Part shown: one piece after another, positions 14,487-55,711 of the stretch | Layout: the number at the start of each line of letters is the position of its first letter | How positions within the stretch are numbered: the stretch's first letter is position 1 | Source: a virus | Taxonomy: Duplodnaviria; Heunggongvirae; Uroviricota; Caudoviricetes | Reading direction: 5' to 3' (one strand) | Virus record (IMG/VR): IMGVR_UViG_2571042690_000019 | Length of the DNA stretch: 64,000 nt | Position numbers and translations under genes: made by a program | The notes under the pieces: generated by a model | The model's input: only the letters and a program-made list of their open reading frames with translations | Told to the model about the DNA's origin: nothing | Database searches by the model: none

Positions 14487-15020
14487 GTAGAAATATACCC
14501 CACGATAATGCCATGGCGCAACAGTCAGTATTTTATGCTTTGGCGGATTTCTTCCGGGCTTGCTTGCAGGCGTAGGCCATTGCTTTAGCTTTCACTTCAT
14601 CCAGCTTCCCGGTGATCACTTCTTTTCCGAGAGTGACAAACCAGTCATAGCAACCGCCAGTAATGTTCTTGATTTGAAAGTTGAGGTAGCGAACAGTCAT
14701 TTTGACACCCCCAGCGCGAGTAAAGAATGCAGATTATCGCGTGAGTGGTGGACGACGAGTGATGGGAAAAGACTGTAGTTGTTCATAGTGTAGTGACTCC
14801 TTGCTTTCGGAGCCGCCATTGACTGTTCCACGGTCTGGTGGCGGCGCAATAAAGGCTGGAACACCGTGAGTCAACGGGGGCTTTTCAGCCACCTATATTG
14901 CACCGCCATAGGTATAGCGGCGGCAATAATACGAAAAACTAAACAGTTTGTCTCAAAAAGTTGACCGGTGTGCCAATCGGTAGTGAATGTACATCGGGGA
15001 AATTTACAATTCAACTTAAA

Positions 15021-15033
15021 ATGTTAGAAAACT
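15021..15033. promoter_or_regulatory. C1-operator-like site
   Basis: atgttagaaaact (reverse complement AGTTTTCTAACAT) at the 3' end of the ref-like gene. Confidence 0.4.
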
Positions 15034-15610
15034 AATTTATCAATTCAATCGCCATCTGATACAACGCCATTTCATCGGCATTGTGCCGTATGAAATCTGC
15101 TTTTCCGCCTATTTTTCCATCAGCATGAACAGGGACCAGCCAGGGATATTGTTCTCGGACCTCGGCTGGCGCTGCGTACTGGTGGTGCCATTTACACAAA
15201 GGGAGGACATATTTATGCGCGTTCTCTGCCGTTCTCCCGAAGATATGGTGCAGGGATACTACTGGGCTATGTTGCCCGTGAATATGGCAGGCAATGCAGG
15301 GGAGAGTACCGATAGCGGTCTGTATCCGGCGTTCATCGGCTGTGAGTGATCTGCCCTTCAGGCCGCGTGACGTGCGTGTTTTTTTGGGCGGAGCGGATAC
15401 AGCTTTATCTTTTCTCCGCTGTTCATATTGCTTTGCTTTTTCAATTTTCTTTTGCCGATATTCAGGCGATGCGGCTTTTTCTCTCGCTCGCTGCTGCTGG
15501 CGTTGAGCTTGTTGAAGGCGCTTTGCCCTTTGTTCCTCTCGCCAGGCCGGGTCAGCCAATTTTTGCATGGCTTTTTGTCTCTGTTTCTCCCAATAACTCT
15601 GTTTCTGCAT
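15032..15610 (-). CDS. ref: Ref-like HNH endonuclease (RecA-dependent nuclease)
   Basis: 192 aa; highly basic Q/R/K-rich disordered N-terminus then Cys/His core (LPCIACHIHG...SLHHIFGRT...LPLCKWHH), as recalled for P1 Ref. Confidence 0.55.
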   Translation of the reverse strand: MQKQSYWEKQRQKAMQKLADPAWREEQRAKRLQQAQRQQQRAREKAASPEYRQKKIEKAKQYEQRRKDKAVSAPPKKTRTSRGLKGRSLTADERRIQTAIGTLPCIACHIHGQHSPVVSLHHIFGRTAENAHKYVLPLCKWHHQYAAPAEVREQYPWLVPVHADGKIGGKADFIRHNADEMALYQMAIELIN

Positions 15611-15677
15611 GATGGCAGTCTCTTACTTTTCAACGATTTTTCTATGATTGATCAAAATGGTTAGATATTCAAAATTG

Positions 15678-15695
15678 ATTTTCTAACATAAAACA
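15678..15695. promoter_or_regulatory. C1-operator-like site in divergent promoter region (ref / 15856 operon)
   Basis: gattttctaacataaaac. Confidence 0.45.
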
Positions 15696-15855
15696 TTAAT
15701 ATCATTCCTGATAACTGTTTGGAGGACATGATGCTTATAGCTTTAAGTGCGATCCACCAGCCATCTGTGAATGAGATTGGCCTGTTCTATGTGTTGGTTT
15801 TCGGGGCGTTGGCGCTACTTGAGCTTGGTATTGAGCTTTTCGCAGTGCTTATGTT

Positions 15856-16506
15856 TTGCGTCACGATTCTGGGGAAATTTTGATGGTGAAACGTGTTTTG
15901 AAAATTTACATCGCGGGGCCGATGACTGGTTATCCAGATTACAACCGTGCGGCGTTTAATGCGAAAGCGAGCGAGCTGATGTCTGAAGGGCATATCGTTC
16001 TGAATCCAGCTGTGTTACCTGGTGGCCTTTGCCAGAGTGAATACATGGATATTTGCCTGGCAATGGTGCGTTCTGCTGATGCGATCTATCTGCTCAATCA
16101 ATGGGAAGAATCGGTTGGTGCTCGCGCAGAGCACGCGCTGGCTGAAAAGCTGGGGCTGACTGTAATTTATGAGTCACAAACCAACATTGAATGCCAGGTT
16201 GCTCCGCATATTTACCGTGAACTGGTAAATGCGTTACGTGATGTTGCTATTGAATGTCACGGCACGGATCAGCTTCGCGCCCGCTTAAGCAAAACCCTTT
16301 CCAGTTACCTGTCTTTGGCTGAAGGATACAACCTCCGGCAGCGGAGAATGGTCAAATTAATCACGCGTTTATCTCAATCCCTGGCAAATGCCGAACCAAC
16401 TAATCCGCTACCTAATGACGCAATGAATTACCTGAAGTCATGCGGCGTTGTTTCTGAAGATGCAGTTCGTTTTGTGGAGTTTATGTCTCAGAGGATGTCA
16501 GCGTGA
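15856..16506 (+). CDS. nucleoside 2-deoxyribosyltransferase-like (DUF4406-type) protein with extra C-terminal module
   Basis: N-terminal IYIAGPMTGYPDYNRAAFNAKASEL...ADAIYLLNQWEESVGARAEHALAEKLGL; C-terminal HIYRELVNALRDVAIECHGTDQLRARLSK is shared with the 538-aa protein at 24449..26065. Confidence 0.45.
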   Translation: MRHDSGEILMVKRVLKIYIAGPMTGYPDYNRAAFNAKASELMSEGHIVLNPAVLPGGLCQSEYMDICLAMVRSADAIYLLNQWEESVGARAEHALAEKLGLTVIYESQTNIECQVAPHIYRELVNALRDVAIECHGTDQLRARLSKTLSSYLSLAEGYNLRQRRMVKLITRLSQSLANAEPTNPLPNDAMNYLKSCGVVSEDAVRFVEFMSQRMSA

Positions 16507-16820
16507 GCTGGCGGGGATGGGGAAGGGCGGAAATCATGATACTCCGCCAGTGCGCCGGGACTATGACAGTCGTGAGTATTGGGAGGCTGATCGGGCGTAC
16601 CGGTAGTGCTGTCAGAACCAAAGCGCGGCAACTGCGGATCTGCATGATTCTGAAAGGAGACTTTCACCCGTCAGCCAAATACCGGCAGGGCGATATAGAA
16701 CTGGCACGGCAGCTTCATCGGTGTGGTGTTCCCCGCCGTGAGATCGCAGAAAAACTCGAAATGCCCTTGAGCATGATTAATCAGTACGTTTATTTCGAAA
16801 GGAGAGTACATGAAGTCTGA
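16503..16820 (+). CDS. small HTH DNA-binding protein
   Basis: 105 aa; C-terminal HTH-like GVPRREIAEKLEMPLSMINQYV; start overlaps upstream stop. Confidence 0.45.
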   Translation: MSWRGWGRAEIMILRQCAGTMTVVSIGRLIGRTGSAVRTKARQLRICMILKGDFHPSAKYRQGDIELARQLHRCGVPRREIAEKLEMPLSMINQYVYFERRVHEV

Positions 16821-17313
16821 AGGTTTAACGCCAGCACAACTGGCAGAGCGTAACGCTGAGTATGTAACGGAAATTTCCCGACTTGAGAAAGAACGCTCGG
16901 CGCTGGCGGCGGAGAATGAACTGGCTCGTAAGGCAGTTCAGGCATTCTGCGATGTTGTTGGCGACAACACCGAGGTTATCGCTGAGGAGGTTGGGCGAGA
17001 TGGCGTTCTGGTTATTTTGGAGGCCATGAAGGCAACAGGAAATATGCCAGCCACCGATGCTTTCCTGGCTGAAATTCGTGCGGAGGCTCGCAACGAGGGG
17101 ATTAACTATACCGCAAGCCGTCTTGCTGCTGCTTTCAACCACGGATTTATCAATAAGTCTTTACGTGAAGTTTTCGACGTTACACGCATGATTCTGTCAG
17201 CGAAAGAAGAGTTGGCTAATGAACCGCACCCGATTGATGGCCTGTCCGGTGAATATGCGGAGAAATCCCTTGAAGAATGGGCGGAACAGATTCGCAAAGG
17301 AGCTGACAAGTGA
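16810..17313 (+). CDS. coiled-coil paralog family member 1
   Basis: 167 aa; family motifs SALAAENELARKA, PATDAFLAEIRAEA, AEQIRKGADK. Confidence 0.5.
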   Translation: MKSEGLTPAQLAERNAEYVTEISRLEKERSALAAENELARKAVQAFCDVVGDNTEVIAEEVGRDGVLVILEAMKATGNMPATDAFLAEIRAEARNEGINYTASRLAAAFNHGFINKSLREVFDVTRMILSAKEELANEPHPIDGLSGEYAEKSLEEWAEQIRKGADK

Positions 17314-17720
17314 AGAAGATGATTTTTGTCGCGGCATTGTTGGTGAATATCCAACAAGTGCATGCTTCAGCAGCTATTGTAGCCTCTACCGCCGCGACTA
17401 CGGCTGCTGTAGCTGCTGCGAACTCTGCGAATATCGCAAACCAACAGGCACAGCGTGCTGCTAATGCATCAGCCAGCGTTCACTCAATCACCATTAAGAG
17501 CAGTAAGCAAAATCTGGGATTCATAACGTGCGGCACGCGTTCTAATGAAGCTGTAGGTTCACTTGGATGTACGGTATATGGGGGTAGTGAGAATAGAGAA
17601 ATTCCATGGAAAACGTGGCCCGGATACGTTCTTGGCTCGAAGCTCCCGGCCAGTTATGAAGTAAACGCCGTATCGTTTGATCACTATAACGGCGTGGCAA
17701 CGGTCTATTTTGCATATTGA
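17310..17720 (+). CDS. small secreted protein
   Basis: 136 aa with signal peptide and Ala/Thr-rich repeat. Confidence 0.45.
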   Translation: MKKMIFVAALLVNIQQVHASAAIVASTAATTAAVAAANSANIANQQAQRAANASASVHSITIKSSKQNLGFITCGTRSNEAVGSLGCTVYGGSENREIPWKTWPGYVLGSKLPASYEVNAVSFDHYNGVATVYFAY

Positions 17721-18514
17721 GGCTCCGCATGAAATTCTCCAAATTTTCTGAGTTGGTGAATCGTATTTTGTCCAACAACCACAGCCATCGTCGCGATATG
17801 GATGTAACGATCGTTGTTCATTCGCCTGGCAGCATTGGTTCAACACCCTCAGTTGAGGTTCAGTCAATTCACGCTGGTTTTGATTGGGATTCCGGGAAAG
17901 TGCTGATTTTCCCAGCACAGCCACTGACCACGCTAACACCAGAACAGATTACTGATATTACTGATAGTGTGCGCAAAGGTCAGTCCTGGCACGCATATCA
18001 GGAATACAAGAAGCATAAAGAGCAGTTGGAAAAATTATCGATTGAACTTGATACCGCAAAACAGCGCATTGCAGAGCTGGAGGGTAATCGCGCGGCGCTG
18101 GCTGCGGAGAATGCGAGACTGAAGGCGATATGTGAGGATCGCCGCACGTTCATTATGAATGGCGTGCAGCTTGGTTTTATCAAGGTGCCAACAGTGGAAA
18201 TAGATCCAGCTCTTGAAACAATTCGTATCGCCCTATCACCACAAAAAACCACTCCTGCGACCGACACTTTCCTAGATGAAGTGAAGACTGAAGCACGCAA
18301 GGAGGGCGCTTACTTTGTGGCGAATAGAATGCTGGCTGCCTGGGAAGCTGGTTTTATTGATGATACTGCGAAGAACGCCGCGGATATTGCCCGGATGATT
18401 CTTACCTCTACTGAGTTTATGGCTAATGCGCGGGAAGGCGATTTTGACCGCTCATTCTCTGATGGTGTTCTCGAAGATATCGCTGAACAGCTTCGCAAAG
18501 GAGGCAGCCAGTGA
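17717..18514 (+). CDS. coiled-coil paralog family member 2
   Basis: 265 aa; AKQRIAELEGNRAALAAENARLKA, PATDTFLDEVKTEARKEG, C-terminal AEQLRKGGSQ overlapping the next GTG start. Confidence 0.5.
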   Translation: MRLRMKFSKFSELVNRILSNNHSHRRDMDVTIVVHSPGSIGSTPSVEVQSIHAGFDWDSGKVLIFPAQPLTTLTPEQITDITDSVRKGQSWHAYQEYKKHKEQLEKLSIELDTAKQRIAELEGNRAALAAENARLKAICEDRRTFIMNGVQLGFIKVPTVEIDPALETIRIALSPQKTTPATDTFLDEVKTEARKEGAYFVANRMLAAWEAGFIDDTAKNAADIARMILTSTEFMANAREGDFDRSFSDGVLEDIAEQLRKGGSQ

Positions 18515-24242: not shown

Positions 24243-24452
24243 ATGGCTATTGCCGCAAGTTACACAATGCATCTCTATTGTGACTGCCGCCAGTGTACGG
24301 AAGGTGTATATCCAGTGCCAGACTTCGGTGAGTATATAGGTACGTCATGGGCTGGCTGTGCAAAAGAGGCGCGCAAGGATGGCTGGCGAATAAGCAAAGA
24401 CAAAACGCGTGCTTTTGCGCCCGGGCATAAAGTTTTGAGGATTAACAAATGA
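24243..24452 (+). CDS. small Cys-rich protein
   Basis: Start at the ATG with a strong AAGGAG RBS; MAIAASYTMHLYCDCRQCTEG.... Confidence 0.35.
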   Translation: MAIAASYTMHLYCDCRQCTEGVYPVPDFGEYIGTSWAGCAKEARKDGWRISKDKTRAFAPGHKVLRINK

Positions 24453-26065
24453 CCACTATTACCAGAGAACAAGCTCTGAAAATTATTGAGGCAGCCGATG
24501 AGGTTATTAGTGCGCTTGCCGGAACTAACGAGGATGTTCACCCTGGTAGCGATAACATGCTACGCCTGTGGGATGACCTGAATGACCGTTACGCGCCGCC
24601 GGAAGTTGTGCGTGAGCTGGCACGAATTGCACTGGCATCGCTGGAAGCAGAACCAGTTAAACGAGTTAACTCAGATCAGATGCGCCGAGTCTGCTTAGAA
24701 GCTAATCGCCATTTAGATAAATATGACGCGATGGCGAAAGAGGTAAATAAGTTGCTTGGACGCATCGCCCCGCCAGCACCGGTAGTGCCTGAAGAAGCAA
24801 CTCCGGAAAACGTAGAAATGCTCTCTGGCTATGTTTCAACGTACAAATTAACCGATAGCGAGCGCGATATTGCTGCCGAAATATGGAACGCCTGCCGCGC
24901 CGCCATGCTTCAGTCCGGAAACTTTCGGGAAAACAAGAATTCGTCAACCAATAATTTTCGGGAAATCGCGGAAACGTCAACCAGCTATCCGGCAATTCCT
25001 AGTGAGGTGTTGTCCGCAATCCTGAAGGTTGCCAGGATTCGTGCCGATTTCGATGATTTTGACGGTGACAGGCGAGGTATCGGTGATTGTCTGGATGAGG
25101 CCGAGCAAGAGCTTATCGTTACCATTAACAAATATGCCAGTCAGTTGGCAGCAGAACCGATAGCGGCTAATGACGTTCGAGAGCAGCAGACAGCCGTTCC
25201 GCCAGTTCCAGAAATACAGGCTGATGTCGCGCAAGCAATTGAAAATCTCAAGCAGAAGTTAGTGGAATGCAATCGCTATAACTACTGCGCAGATGCAGTT
25301 AAAGGCGTAGAGGATGCCAGCCGCGTCTTGGCACTCCAAAATCAAAATATGTCAGCACCGGTAACGCCGGAGGCCATTGAAAACGCAATTGAATATATCC
25401 GCAGTATCGCTTTTCACATCGATGAAGACGATTACCACGGCAAGCATATTGCGTATTTCATGCGACAAGCATTGGCCTGGCTGGAAGGGCATTCATGCAG
25501 CGACGACAGGCTGGGTAAGGCCGACAATCAACCCGCATCTGGTAACCAGGCTGCCGAATCCAATCGCGGTAATGAGTGGACCGGCAATCCTGATATTGAT
25601 AACGCCATCATCATGCTCGACCGCATAGATACGGCGGAAAGTTGCGATGATGACCGTATTGAGGCCGTTAAGGCTGTGTTGCGTAGACTGGCAGGCAACT
25701 ATCCGGATATTCCGGATAGTTCGGTGCCAGCGCCAGGAAAGGGCGTCACCGGTGAACGTATCCGCATTAAGCCGCATGTTTATCGCGAACTGGTTAACCG
25801 TCTCCACGATACAGCGATCAAGTGTGCTGGCACCCAGCAATTACGAGAAAGAATTAGCCGTGTTTTGGGCGACGTTATTACACCAGATCATCATAAACAA
25901 GCCGAGAAAAGTGGCCTGGAAAGGTGTCGCCTTGAGGCGGCATTAAACATTAAGCCGGGGCATACGCTTGGCATTATTGATGCACTATTGGTTCATAAGA
26001 TGGCCAGGGCTTTATTGCCGCTGGTGGCTGAAAAGCATGAGGTGGACCATGCCAACGAAAGCTGA
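24449..26065 (+). CDS. large hypothetical protein (538 aa)
   Basis: Long ORF; C-terminal KPHVYRELVNRLHDTAIKCAGTQQLRERISR is shared with 15856..16506. Confidence 0.5.
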   Translation: MTTITREQALKIIEAADEVISALAGTNEDVHPGSDNMLRLWDDLNDRYAPPEVVRELARIALASLEAEPVKRVNSDQMRRVCLEANRHLDKYDAMAKEVNKLLGRIAPPAPVVPEEATPENVEMLSGYVSTYKLTDSERDIAAEIWNACRAAMLQSGNFRENKNSSTNNFREIAETSTSYPAIPSEVLSAILKVARIRADFDDFDGDRRGIGDCLDEAEQELIVTINKYASQLAAEPIAANDVREQQTAVPPVPEIQADVAQAIENLKQKLVECNRYNYCADAVKGVEDASRVLALQNQNMSAPVTPEAIENAIEYIRSIAFHIDEDDYHGKHIAYFMRQALAWLEGHSCSDDRLGKADNQPASGNQAAESNRGNEWTGNPDIDNAIIMLDRIDTAESCDDDRIEAVKAVLRRLAGNYPDIPDSSVPAPGKGVTGERIRIKPHVYRELVNRLHDTAIKCAGTQQLRERISRVLGDVITPDHHKQAEKSGLERCRLEAALNIKPGHTLGIIDALLVHKMARALLPLVAEKHEVDHANES

Positions 26066-43525: not shown

Positions 43526-43549
43526 CTTTGTTAAATTATTTTTCTAACA
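43526..43549. promoter_or_regulatory. C1-operator-like site in promoter of 42303..43511
   Basis: attatttttctaacatatattatt, 15-35 bp upstream of the start codon. Confidence 0.45.
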
Positions 43550-43624
43550 TATATTATTAGTTTGATGACAGTATCGAAAGATGCAATAAACAAAAAACCC
43601 GCTAATTGGCGGGTTTTTATGCAA

Positions 43625-54420: not shown

Positions 54421-54482
54421 CAGCAATGGATGACTTCAGTCGATGATGCAGATCATACATTCCGATTTAGAAACAGCAAATT

Positions 54483-54500
54483 AATTTTCTAACATAAATC
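54483..54500. promoter_or_regulatory. C1-operator-like site upstream of immI module 2
   Basis: aattttctaacataaatc. Confidence 0.45.
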
Positions 54501-55681: not shown

Positions 55682-55700
55682 CTATGTTAGAAATTTAACT
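55682..55700. promoter_or_regulatory. C1-operator-like site
   Basis: ctatgttagaaatttaact. Confidence 0.4.
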
Positions 55701-55711
55701 TAACAAGGCGA

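Follow-up and report, generated by a model that had tools for sequence, protein, structure and literature searches.

A predicted nucleotide enzyme joined to a widespread alpha-hairpin module in a D6-like phage-plasmid

Enzymes of the NDT/DNPH1/MilB superfamily have a flavodoxin-like alpha/beta fold and are obligate dimers, in which the active site of each subunit is completed by a C-terminal element of the other, and the way in which one of them, DNPH1, holds its substrate has been described: the 5'-phosphate is bound by a Ser six residues ahead of a Glu (S87, followed by G89 and E93, in rat; S98 and E104 in human), and by the backbone of the G-x-x-x-G loop that comes after the catalytic Tyr (G16/G20 in rat; PMC3834327, PMC10603095). 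Within phages, DmtZ, of the NDT family, has been proven to hydrolyse dAMP and to transfer deoxyribose-5-phosphate (PMC12884076). As for the accessory gene class to which the locus described here belongs, the studied example is lambda Ea22, for which domain mosaicism is documented (PMC10834534), as it is for phage proteins generally (PMC10684548).

The window, i.e. the whole stretch of 64,000 nucleotides that was analysed, is part of a D6-like (P1-related) phage-plasmid of E. coli, judging from its identity of 94% to phage D6 and of 99% to a 97-kb E. coli plasmid. Three of its genes set the scene:

15883..16506, + strand: DUF4406 gene, 207 aa, encoding a DUF4406 domain, a hairpin module and a tail
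15731..15883, + strand: open reading frame for a 50-aa hydrophobic peptide, homologue of D6 orf88, with a GGAGG Shine-Dalgarno sequence
15032..15610, - strand: ref (RecA-dependent nuclease), from annotation and Pfam RecA_dep_nuc (E 1.3e-34)

The original prediction opened the DUF4406 gene at TTG 15856, and put it at the head of an operator-controlled operon. The upstream start is not borne out, since both RefSeq, where the protein carries a WP_000240859-type label ('DUF4406 domain-containing protein'), and phage D6, where its homologue is orf89, use ATG 15883. Nor does the gene lead the operon: the 50-codon frame precedes it and its stop overlaps the ATG (TGATG), so that the DUF4406 gene comes second. 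The operon diverges from ref, with which it has a regulatory region in common, and around which the following elements were found:

15672..15689, + strand: operator-like 18-mer, AAATTGATTTTCTAACAT, candidate D6-type C1 operator
15021..15038, - strand: second operator-like 18-mer, at the 3' end of ref
15675..15702, + strand: putative sigma-70 promoter (TTGATT, 16-nt spacer, TAATAT), read from the sequence

Control by an operator, the other half of that claim, is plausible. Allowing up to three mismatches, the 18-mer has five copies in the window where 0.17 would be expected, the copy ahead of the operon runs over the -35 hexamer and into the spacer of the putative promoter, and phage D6 has the same sites, again on either side of ref. 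A D6-type C1 would be the candidate to bind them; the window contains nothing within three mismatches of ATTGCTCTAATAAATTT, the consensus of the P1 C1 operators. The promoter we infer from 8 of 12 consensus positions, a score under the threshold of the scan tool. The DUF4406 gene is the second in a long, probably repressor-controlled accessory operon.

The protein itself falls into three parts:

15901..16170, + strand (aa 7-96): DUF4406 domain with the NDT/DNPH1-superfamily fold, from Pfam, AF2 and profile alignment
16195..16320, + strand (aa 105-146): portable alpha-hairpin mini-domain, copy 1
16321..16503, + strand (aa 147-207): C-terminal tail, low-confidence helices (pLDDT 40-59)

This is a mosaic protein, and we consider it somewhat more likely than not that in it a DNPH1-like nucleotide enzyme is followed by an oligomerisation or adaptor hairpin and a tail. 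The identity of the first part is plain. It matches Pfam DUF4406 (PF14359) at E 1e-33, with 116.1 bits against a gathering cutoff of 22, over model positions 2-91 of 91, and AF2 gives it the flavodoxin-like superfamily fold at a pLDDT above 90; for the whole protein, modelled as a single chain, the pTM is 0.50, and the arrangement of the domains is uncertain. While the single 207-aa sequence returned no useful match among PDB sequences, the DUF4406 profile reached T. brucei NDT at E 2.4e-4, and the NDT-like fold first proposed for this domain is correct. In that profile alignment, and at the alignment level only, Y9 aligns with the Tyr of the NDT, D66 with the Asp in CDAV and E83 with the nucleophile Glu in GTAFE, and S77 takes the place of the Asp used by nucleoside-specific NDTs. 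The family pattern, Y-x-x-G-P ... N-x-x-x-F ... N/D-P ... S-x-G-x-x-x-E, is complete in the 207-aa protein (Y9, G12, P13, N21, F25, P42, L71, S77, G79, E83), and six of these residues, Y9, G12, P13, S77, G79 and E83, are invariant among 23 diverse DUF4406 proteins. The DNPH1 spacing is also kept, as S77-x-G79-x-x-x-E83 and Y9-x-x-G12-x-x-x-G16, a comparison of spacing rather than of superposed structures.

DUF4406 could therefore be regarded, on the strength of its DNPH1-type phosphate site in place of the nucleoside-type Asp, as a (d)NMP N-glycosidase or phosphodeoxyribosyltransferase, a testable hypothesis for a domain that hundreds of phages carry (392 records at E<=1e-8). It would be a minimal enzyme of the NDT/DNPH1/MilB superfamily, with an intact Tyr9/Asp66/Glu83 triad and a DNPH1-type phosphate-binding signature. 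Such an enzyme is predicted to release the base from 5'-phosphorylated (deoxy)nucleotides by breaking the N-glycosidic bond, with a covalent Glu83-sugar intermediate, or perhaps to pass the sugar-phosphate on to another base; in either case, the nucleotide pool would be reshaped or sanitised during phage development. Some observations sit less easily with the proposal: a few DUF4406 homologues carry N or E in place of D66, and the core, shorter than those of DNPH1 and the NDTs, offers no conserved residue in place of the second Ser or Asn, the one that acts in trans.

The second part of the protein recurs elsewhere in the window:

24449..26065, + strand: 538-aa mosaic EaA/PmgU-type protein, with an EaA-type N-terminus and a D6 orf104-like C-terminal 290 aa
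25763..25882, + strand (aa 439-478): hairpin mini-domain, copy 2

A C-terminal module of 60 residues had been proposed to be shared by the two proteins. The similarity is indeed far above chance, with 21/40 residues identical (BLASTP between the copies, E 2e-12) and a Smith-Waterman score of 121 against 35 +/- 5 (maximum 68) over 1000 shuffles; it is internal, though, and spans about 40 residues (aa 105-144, nt 16195-16314, against aa 439-478), after which each protein continues for some 60 residues with no detectable similarity to the other. The hairpin is the sole part that the 207-aa and 538-aa proteins have in common, and the window holds these two copies only. In the AF2 model, copy 1 consists of helix 108-124, the loop CHGTDQ and helix 131-145 (pLDDT ~84). 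A tandem copy in another phage protein, P0242, for which the alignment is deep, is modelled at a pLDDT of 96-98, with a pTM of 0.37 at which hairpin-hairpin packing is not judgeable. As modelled, then, the hairpin is an independent helix-loop-helix mini-domain.

This module is not a peculiarity of the locus. It has no Pfam model, yet copy 1 matches PHROGs 21459, 38634, 20174, 21749, 15065 and 29262 (E 2.9e-10 to 5e-3). A word-indexed search with the C-terminal half alone found the D6-like family only, and a multi-phage module profile was needed to see further; its motifs are H, RELVN, L-R-D-x-A and T-Q-Q-L-R, of which copy 1 keeps H109, N116, L118, A122, Q130, L131 and R132, with D at the Q129 position. 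With this profile, the word-indexed search gave 244 matches, the best 120 of them all proteins of 38-79 aa, and the family amounts to at least 2,427 phage cluster representatives (E<=1e-3; clusters at 50% identity), in P1-like, P22-like, lambdoid, T7-like and T5-like phages and in large myoviruses. Among the top 144, the hairpin is internal in 83, C-terminal in 32 and N-terminal in 29, and two carry tandem copies. The PDB sequence search with the hairpin profile gave matches at chance level only (albicin, E 0.29), and Foldseek with the P0242 model, in which the hairpin is very small and the rest poor, gave no hit at E<3. In the literature searched, on DUF4406, pmgU and DUF551, no functional work on either module turned up, nor any DUF4406 member with measured activity. 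With the hairpin present in thousands of phage accessory proteins, the copy shared by these two reflects ordinary module shuffling, and is not a signal special to this phage.

The same mosaicism runs through the rest of both proteins. In the 538-aa protein, aa 249-538 are 96% identical to D6 orf104, and aa 426-526 are 94% identical to P1 PmgU over 101 of 111 residues, the similarity to PmgU being full-length; its N-terminus resembles that of P0285, and its PHROG matches show a mosaic pattern. In the 207-aa protein, the tail is probably a second shuffled module, poorly predicted but helical and related to N15 gp45: aa 156-196 resemble the gp45 C-terminus (tblastn E 6e-3 in the phage collection; BLASTP against a small database, 43% identical residues in 42 aa at E 3e-7), and the tail matches phrog_660 at E 0.003. 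The D6-like alleles of the DUF4406 gene are intragenic recombinants. Mosaic phage accessory genes also show recurrent short junction motifs, namely GNSPVIPDGW, NACRAAML and AAPQQEVK.

What, then, might the hairpin do? Under the preferred reading of a mosaic enzyme, it would be an independently folding unit of 40 residues, spread among phage accessory proteins by module shuffling, and here placed like the helical extension that DNPH1 inserts into its partner subunit: in the AF2 model the last strand is followed, at the corresponding point, by helix 108-124, with no conserved Ser assignable. It may accordingly be an oligomerisation or adaptor handle, and the 207-aa protein is most likely, to judge from its sequence, a (d)NMP N-glycosidase or transferase equipped with such a portable handle. 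The hairpin cannot be generally needed for catalysis, as free-standing DUF4406 proteins have tails that are short and variable.

Alternatively, the hairpin could bind one conserved host or phage protein, for instance a replisome component, and so co-locate the DUF4406 enzyme, the PmgU-type protein and, elsewhere, a pyrophosphohydrolase, with free hairpins acting as competitors or inhibitors. We regard this as unlikely. Invariant polar residues stand on both helices (at the H109, N116, R119, D120, Q129, Q130 and R132 positions), and they would suit a specific binding surface no less well than simple self-association, a point against our own reading; in so tiny a fold, however, they may be structural, serving as helix caps or salt bridges. 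Many phages encode the hairpin as a free protein of 45-75 aa, and it is found in virulent phages (T7-like, T5-like, large myoviruses) and temperate ones alike. Gene position is the sole hint at a partner: in Klebsiella Drulisvirus, a 46-aa hairpin is encoded between the primase and helicase genes, whereas hairpin genes of temperate phages sit in generic accessory (ea/nin-type) regions. As originally put, the idea that a module shared by two proteins signals a docking partner or packaging is unsupported, given that the module is not confined to those two proteins; one partner common to the hairpin proteins may nonetheless exist.

A related but more doubtful idea is that the hairpin is a portable tether of nucleotide-pool enzymes (DUF4406 here; PF04447, a dATP/dGTP pyrophosphohydrolase, in EaA proteins) and of other cargo, either to one target or pairwise to each other. 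It repeatedly comes directly after such enzymes, beginning 1-6 residues after the PF04447 domain in 4/4 representatives that have one and 9 residues after DUF4406 in the 207-aa protein, which also speaks for docking. Yet its partners are mostly DUF551 or unknown segments rather than enzymes (36/144 against 4/144), a count that weighs against the mosaic-enzyme reading, and DUF551, the commonest fusion partner, has no known function, a point against a docking target. No PF04447 domain occurs anywhere in the window. Were the tether real, phages would possess a modular kit for controlling the supply of nucleotides locally, in which the many hairpins that stand alone would regulate or inhibit that same target.

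Instead of serving the nucleotide pool, the enzyme domain could act in defence or counter-defence by degrading or sequestering immune signals (NAD-derived or cyclic nucleotides), a mode of action like that of TIR, SLOG or the NDT-like effector of retron Ec86. We find this improbable. PADLOC returned no significant defence-model match, only a chance-level CARF_HEPN hit of 15 bits (E 0.0027), and neither PADLOC nor NCBIfam has a family for the 207-aa or the 538-aa protein. In both sequence and structure the domain comes closest to NDT, MilB and DNPH1, whose catalytic Glu and phosphate-binding Ser it shares. The genomic company of DUF4406 also points to nucleotides: it is fused to a dNMP kinase in two phage proteins (P0116 and P0118), and in Pseudomonas phage MD8 its gene lies directly upstream of a PF04447 gene. 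The dNMP-kinase fusion is the one that was verified, apparent fusions labelled 'deoxycytidylate deaminase' or 'MazG-like' being mislabelled free-standing DUF4406 genes; the MD8 protein, whose alignment runs beyond the domain, has no hairpin. Of the nucleotide-pool or anti-defence role that had been suggested, the nucleotide pool is the best-supported reading, and PADLOC places the protein in no anti-defence family.

Far less credible is a virion-packaging or capsid-targeting signal on proteins injected with the DNA, as with the P1 Dar proteins. P1-type phages do package internal proteins, and the homologous P1 genes bear the name 'pmg', for a putative morphogenetic function. Against this, annotation gives the P1 pmgT-U-V operon sigma-70 promoters and the C1 operator Op88, and no late promoter, and the hairpin gene here stands in an operator-controlled accessory operon adjoining ref. 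The hairpin is found in podo-, sipho- and myoviruses, whose capsids and tails are unrelated, and early or accessory regions encode it as a free mini-protein; in phages of so many kinds, and so often free-standing, a packaging signal for one capsid type is very unlikely. Equally hard to credit is a DNA-level recombination linker or recent internal duplication of no meaning at the protein level, for which the junction motifs and recombinant alleles might speak, since the copies share 48% nucleotide identity with third codon positions randomised (27.5%) and second positions at 67.5%, which marks them as old homologues diverged under protein-level selection, the flanking DNA is unrelated (25-27%), and the module is kept as protein across thousands of clusters.

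For the window itself, these results are mainly a clarification: the repeat is not a phage-specific signal. Beyond it, the hairpin emerges as a very large family and a marker of mosaic EaA/PmgU accessory proteins, and identifying its binding target would annotate thousands of phage proteins together.

How does this protein compare with the systems already described? Its first 96 residues make up a complete DUF4406 domain that scores high and keeps every invariant residue, and a structural-genomics protein, 1T1J, represents a related GW..S.G...E family. Canonical NDTs (PF05014; Lactobacillus, Trypanosoma, Chroococcidiopsis) stand further off: PF05014 is not matched, DUF4406 being the only domain reported at E<=0.1, and the Asp with which they contact the nucleoside 5'-OH, six residues before the nucleophile Glu, is the invariant Ser77 in DUF4406. 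With DNPH1/Rcl, MilB/BcmB and DmtZ, the domain is alike in fold and in the arrangement of Tyr, Asp and Glu; it resembles DNPH1 further in its 5'-phosphate elements (the Ser six before the nucleophile, the G-x-x-x-G after the Tyr) and in the helical element after the last strand. On the other hand, its core is ~35-60 residues shorter than in the DNPH1/MilB group, identity is only 13-24%, and S128' of human DNPH1, the second phosphate-binding Ser, on the helical extension of the partner subunit, has no identifiable counterpart. The hairpin, for its part, opens ST64T Eaa2, makes up the N-terminal part of P1 PmgU and lies midway in P22-type EaA, all from the same type of non-essential early or accessory region, amid Ea22-like, DUF4752 and DUF551 genes, and none of these relatives has DUF4406. 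Most DUF4406 proteins are free-standing, at 110-125 aa (N15 gp57 has 110), or bear other extensions, whereas the 207-aa protein bears the hairpin. In our searches, the only carriers of DUF4406, hairpin and gp45-like tail together were D6-like plasmids (E. coli, Salmonella, Shigella), and the direct orthologue is D6 orf89, 83% identical over 198 aa.

A 40-residue segment is shared by the 207-aa DUF4406 protein and the 538-aa protein (window 24449..26065, +), so the observation behind the original prediction is real but imprecise. Aligned by BLASTP, the two proteins give one significant segment (21/40 residues identical, 29/40 similar, no gaps, E 2e-12), whose Smith-Waterman score of 121 compares with 35 +/- 5 (maximum 68) for 1000 shuffles. 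The similarity thus holds up in a pairwise alignment; however, it is not the C-terminal 60 residues of each protein that recur, as had been proposed, but 40 internal ones, and the ~60 residues that follow show no detectable similarity to each other.
Shared segment in the 207-aa protein: aa 105-144
Shared segment in the 538-aa protein: aa 439-478
Translated in all six frames, the window shows no further copy. The DNA of the two copies is 48% identical (50%, 67.5% and 27.5% at codon positions 1, 2 and 3), against 25-27% for their flanks. Such values mark them as ancient homologues maintained by protein-level selection, and contradict a recent duplication or a linker spread by DNA-level recombination.

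The same segment is found well beyond this phage. Indeed, tblastn against 50,697 phage records places it in 83, for example:
P1 PmgU: aa 17-53 of 111
ST64T Eaa2: aa 7-38, followed by DUF551
Klebsiella phage KpV2811: C-terminus of an EaA-like protein
Cronobacter phage JK004: aa 78-109 of a 393-aa protein
Edwardsiella phage Edno5: an 83-aa protein
T5-like Proteus phage: N-terminus of a protein
Phage Cyrano: C-terminus of a protein
Serratia phage Kashira (Vequintavirinae, virulent; L009 about 1470-1634): free-standing, unannotated ~54-aa ORF
Klebsiella Drulisvirus phages (virulent; e.g. VLC1, L006 1995-2135): free-standing 46-aa protein, its gene between primase and helicase genes
A profile search of 5.8 billion proteins returned 244 matches, the best 120 all being 38-79 aa long and many of these opening directly with MK(D/P)H..RELVN, whilst 1.84 billion cluster representatives, searched exhaustively with an HMM, yielded 2,427 at E<=1e-3 and 1,363 at E<=1e-10. 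Of the 144 proteins newly returned within the best 150 HMM matches, 83 have the segment in an internal position, 32 at the C-terminus and 29 at the N-terminus; 2 carry tandem copies. We found no Pfam or NCBIfam model for it and no solved relative in a PDB sequence search, and PHROGs spreads it over several families of 'unknown function'. In the structure predicted for the 207-aa protein, helices 108-124 and 131-145 are joined by a six-residue loop (pLDDT ~84); the corresponding hairpin of the database protein P0242, which has a deep alignment, reaches pLDDT 96-98. Both helices carry an a/d pattern of hydrophobic positions, and H109, N116, R119, D120, Q129/Q130 and R132 are conserved at 84-99%. 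This spread, the varied placement and the confident helix-loop-helix prediction argue for an independently folding, promiscuous alpha-hairpin mini-domain. What the two proteins share is a widespread, uncurated mini-domain gained by shuffling rather than a signal specific to this phage.

The proteins that carry the hairpin (P0245-P0378) consist of short modules strung together, with the same few motifs (GNSPVIPDGW, NACRAAML, AAPQQEVK) recurring at the junctions, and single-linkage clustering of their non-hairpin parts puts 107 of the 144 in one network. The 538-aa protein has an EaA-type N-terminus (compared with P0285, ST64T Eaa1 and N15 gp45); the last 290 residues share 96% identity with D6 orf104, and near the C-terminus both this protein (aa 426-526, window 25724-26026) and D6 orf104 are 94% identical to P1 PmgU. 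The P1 pmgU gene itself (L004 2453-2788), which starts with GTG and overlaps pmgT out of frame, may be what is left of a longer gene of EaA type. In the DUF4406 protein, tail residues 156-196 resemble the C-terminus of N15 gp45, and D6-like alleles of the gene reassort variants of N-domain, hairpin and tail. P0067 (167 aa), a protein in public databases, is a natural deletion chimera, equivalent to window 15883..~16150 fused to ~17070..17313. In it DUF4406 (...GARAEHALAE) runs straight into the C-terminal module that belongs to the neighbouring Ea22-like protein of 167 aa, the junction apparently lying in a short 'LAE' string common to both. Module sharing has a second example within this operon, a pair of Ea22-like paralogues (16810-17313 and 17717-18514, both +) with a ~100-residue C-terminal module in common (35% identity, E 1e-20). 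Mosaicism of this kind, at the level of fragments, has been described before, both in Ea22 (PMC10834534) and across phage proteins generally (PMC10684548).

Over window 15000-17400 the sequence matches phage D6 (orf87-orf90) at 94% identity, and non-mobilisable plasmids of ~90-97 kb from E. coli, Salmonella and Shigella at 93-99%, which marks the window as a D6-like, P1-related phage-plasmid. Small accessory genes form a long run on the plus strand (for an HTH protein, Ea22-like proteins, DUF4752, DUF968, a metallophosphoesterase and others). The DUF4406 gene belongs to this run, which is divergent from ref, a RecA-dependent nuclease gene (Pfam E 1e-34). The surrounding features are:
15021-15038 (-), 15672-15689 (+), 43533-43550 (+), 54478-54495 (+), 55684-55701 (-): copies of an 18-mer, by sequence match
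15675-15702: promoter-like TTGATT-16 nt-TAATAT, read directly from the sequence
15731..15883 (+): very hydrophobic 50-codon ORF (D6 orf88 homologue) with a strong GGAGG ribosome-binding site, its stop overlapping the DUF4406-gene ATG (TGATG)
17310-17720 (+): 136-aa ORF of the accessory operon, flanked by the two Ea22-like genes; its N-terminus resembles a signal peptide (MKKMIFVAALLVNIQQVHA), and its product may be exported
The DUF4406 gene had been placed at the head of its operon with a start at TTG 15856. That codon falls within the 50-codon ORF; RefSeq and the D6 record both use ATG 15883, giving 207 aa ('DUF4406 domain-containing protein'), so the gene comes second, and it appears to be translationally coupled to the ORF through TGATG. 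The proposed operator control fares better. The 18-mer AAATTGATTTTCTAACAT (= AAATTnnTTTTCTAACAT) occurs five times with <=3 mismatches, against 0.17 expected by chance, and copies flank ref here and likewise in D6; the P1 C1 operator consensus is absent from the window. We regard the 18-mer as a candidate, and probably the, D6-type C1 operator. As the copy at 15672-15689 overlaps the promoter-like site, an operator-controlled operon holding the DUF4406 gene is plausible, repressor binding and the transcript being what we infer from these sites.

The nucleoside 2-deoxyribosyltransferase (NDT)-like fold was called correctly. The N-terminal domain matches the full Pfam DUF4406 model (E 9.8e-34) and phrog_355, 'nucleoside 2-deoxyribosyltransferase' (4e-43); AlphaFold2 with a 93-sequence alignment gives pLDDT >90 over aa 7-96, and the top Foldseek matches in the PDB are all NDT, DNPH1 or MilB. 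From sequence alone, a profile built on 23 diverse DUF4406 proteins picks up T. brucei NDT (E 2.4e-4) and pairs Y9 with the catalytic Tyr, D66 with Asp, E83 with the nucleophile Glu and S77 with the Asp in 'EPDCGTAFE'; Y9, G12, P13, N21, F25, P42, L71, S77, G79 and E83 are invariant across the 23. DNPH1 binds the 5'-phosphate through a Ser six residues before the nucleophile (rat S87/E93, human S98/E104), through backbone amides in the G16-S-I-R-G20 loop that follows Tyr13, and through a Ser on the partner subunit's helical extension (PMC3834327; PMC10603095). The spacing is identical in DUF4406 (S77-x-G79-x-x-x-E83 and Y9-x-x-G12-x-x-x-G16), whereas nucleoside-specific NDTs have Asp in place of Ser77; we infer a 5'-phosphorylated substrate, the reaction being that of an N-glycosidase or sugar-phosphate transferase. 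Circumstantial support comes from fusion of DUF4406 to dNMP kinase (P0116, P0118), from Pseudomonas phage MD8 (L018 2492-3732), where the gene directly downstream of a DUF4406 gene is labelled 'EaA-like' and encodes a PF04447 dATP/dGTP pyrophosphohydrolase, and from the phage NDT-family enzyme DmtZ, which hydrolyses dAMP and transfers deoxyribose 5-phosphate (PMC12884076). The literature searched reports no measured activity for any DUF4406 protein, and the PADLOC defence-system models match neither the 207-aa nor the 538-aa protein. Supposed fusions labelled 'deoxycytidylate deaminase' and 'MazG-like' are mislabelled free-standing DUF4406 genes. In phage N15 (L017 8234-9542) the gene for gp57, a free-standing 110-aa DUF4406 protein, overlaps the start of the DNA cytosine methyltransferase gene gp58; a DNA methylase also adjoins the DUF4406 gene of Mycobacterium phage Brujita.

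Pfam partners among the 144 hairpin proteins are DUF551 (36), PF04447 (4), and DUF3850, ASCH and Ead_Ea22 (2 each). The hairpin begins 1-6 residues past PF04447 in 4/4 such proteins and 9 past DUF4406 in the D6-like protein, and so lies directly behind two different nucleotide-pool enzymes. P22-type EaA runs N-terminal module, PF04447, hairpin, DUF551; in ST64T (L005 1171-2528), Eaa1 (PF04447, E 6e-46) is followed immediately by Eaa2, which opens with the hairpin. Together with the MD8 gene order, the EaA build suggests a link between the DUF4406 and PF04447 enzymes. The hairpin's place behind the enzymes would suit an oligomerisation or adaptor handle; a specific binding partner fits equally well, since polar residues are invariant and the hairpin so often stands alone. 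The packaging signal originally proposed is very unlikely, because the hairpin turns up in phages of unrelated virion types, and in regions that are early or accessory, and even the 'morphogenetic' P1 pmgT-U-V operon is annotated with sigma-70 promoters and a C1 operator.

Records already exist for the protein family, for the mosaic gene class and for the D6 orthologue (orf89, noted as 'similar to N-term half gp57 of phage N15'). The DNPH1-type substrate signature is new, and so are the extent of the hairpin family and its independence. Most likely, the 207-aa protein is a (d)NMP-directed N-glycosidase or transferase with a portable hairpin handle, from a repressor-controlled accessory operon. 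The handle role is suggested both by placement behind the enzymes and by DNPH1 itself, since the first helix of the hairpin sits at the topological place of the helical extension that, in DNPH1, reaches into the partner subunit.
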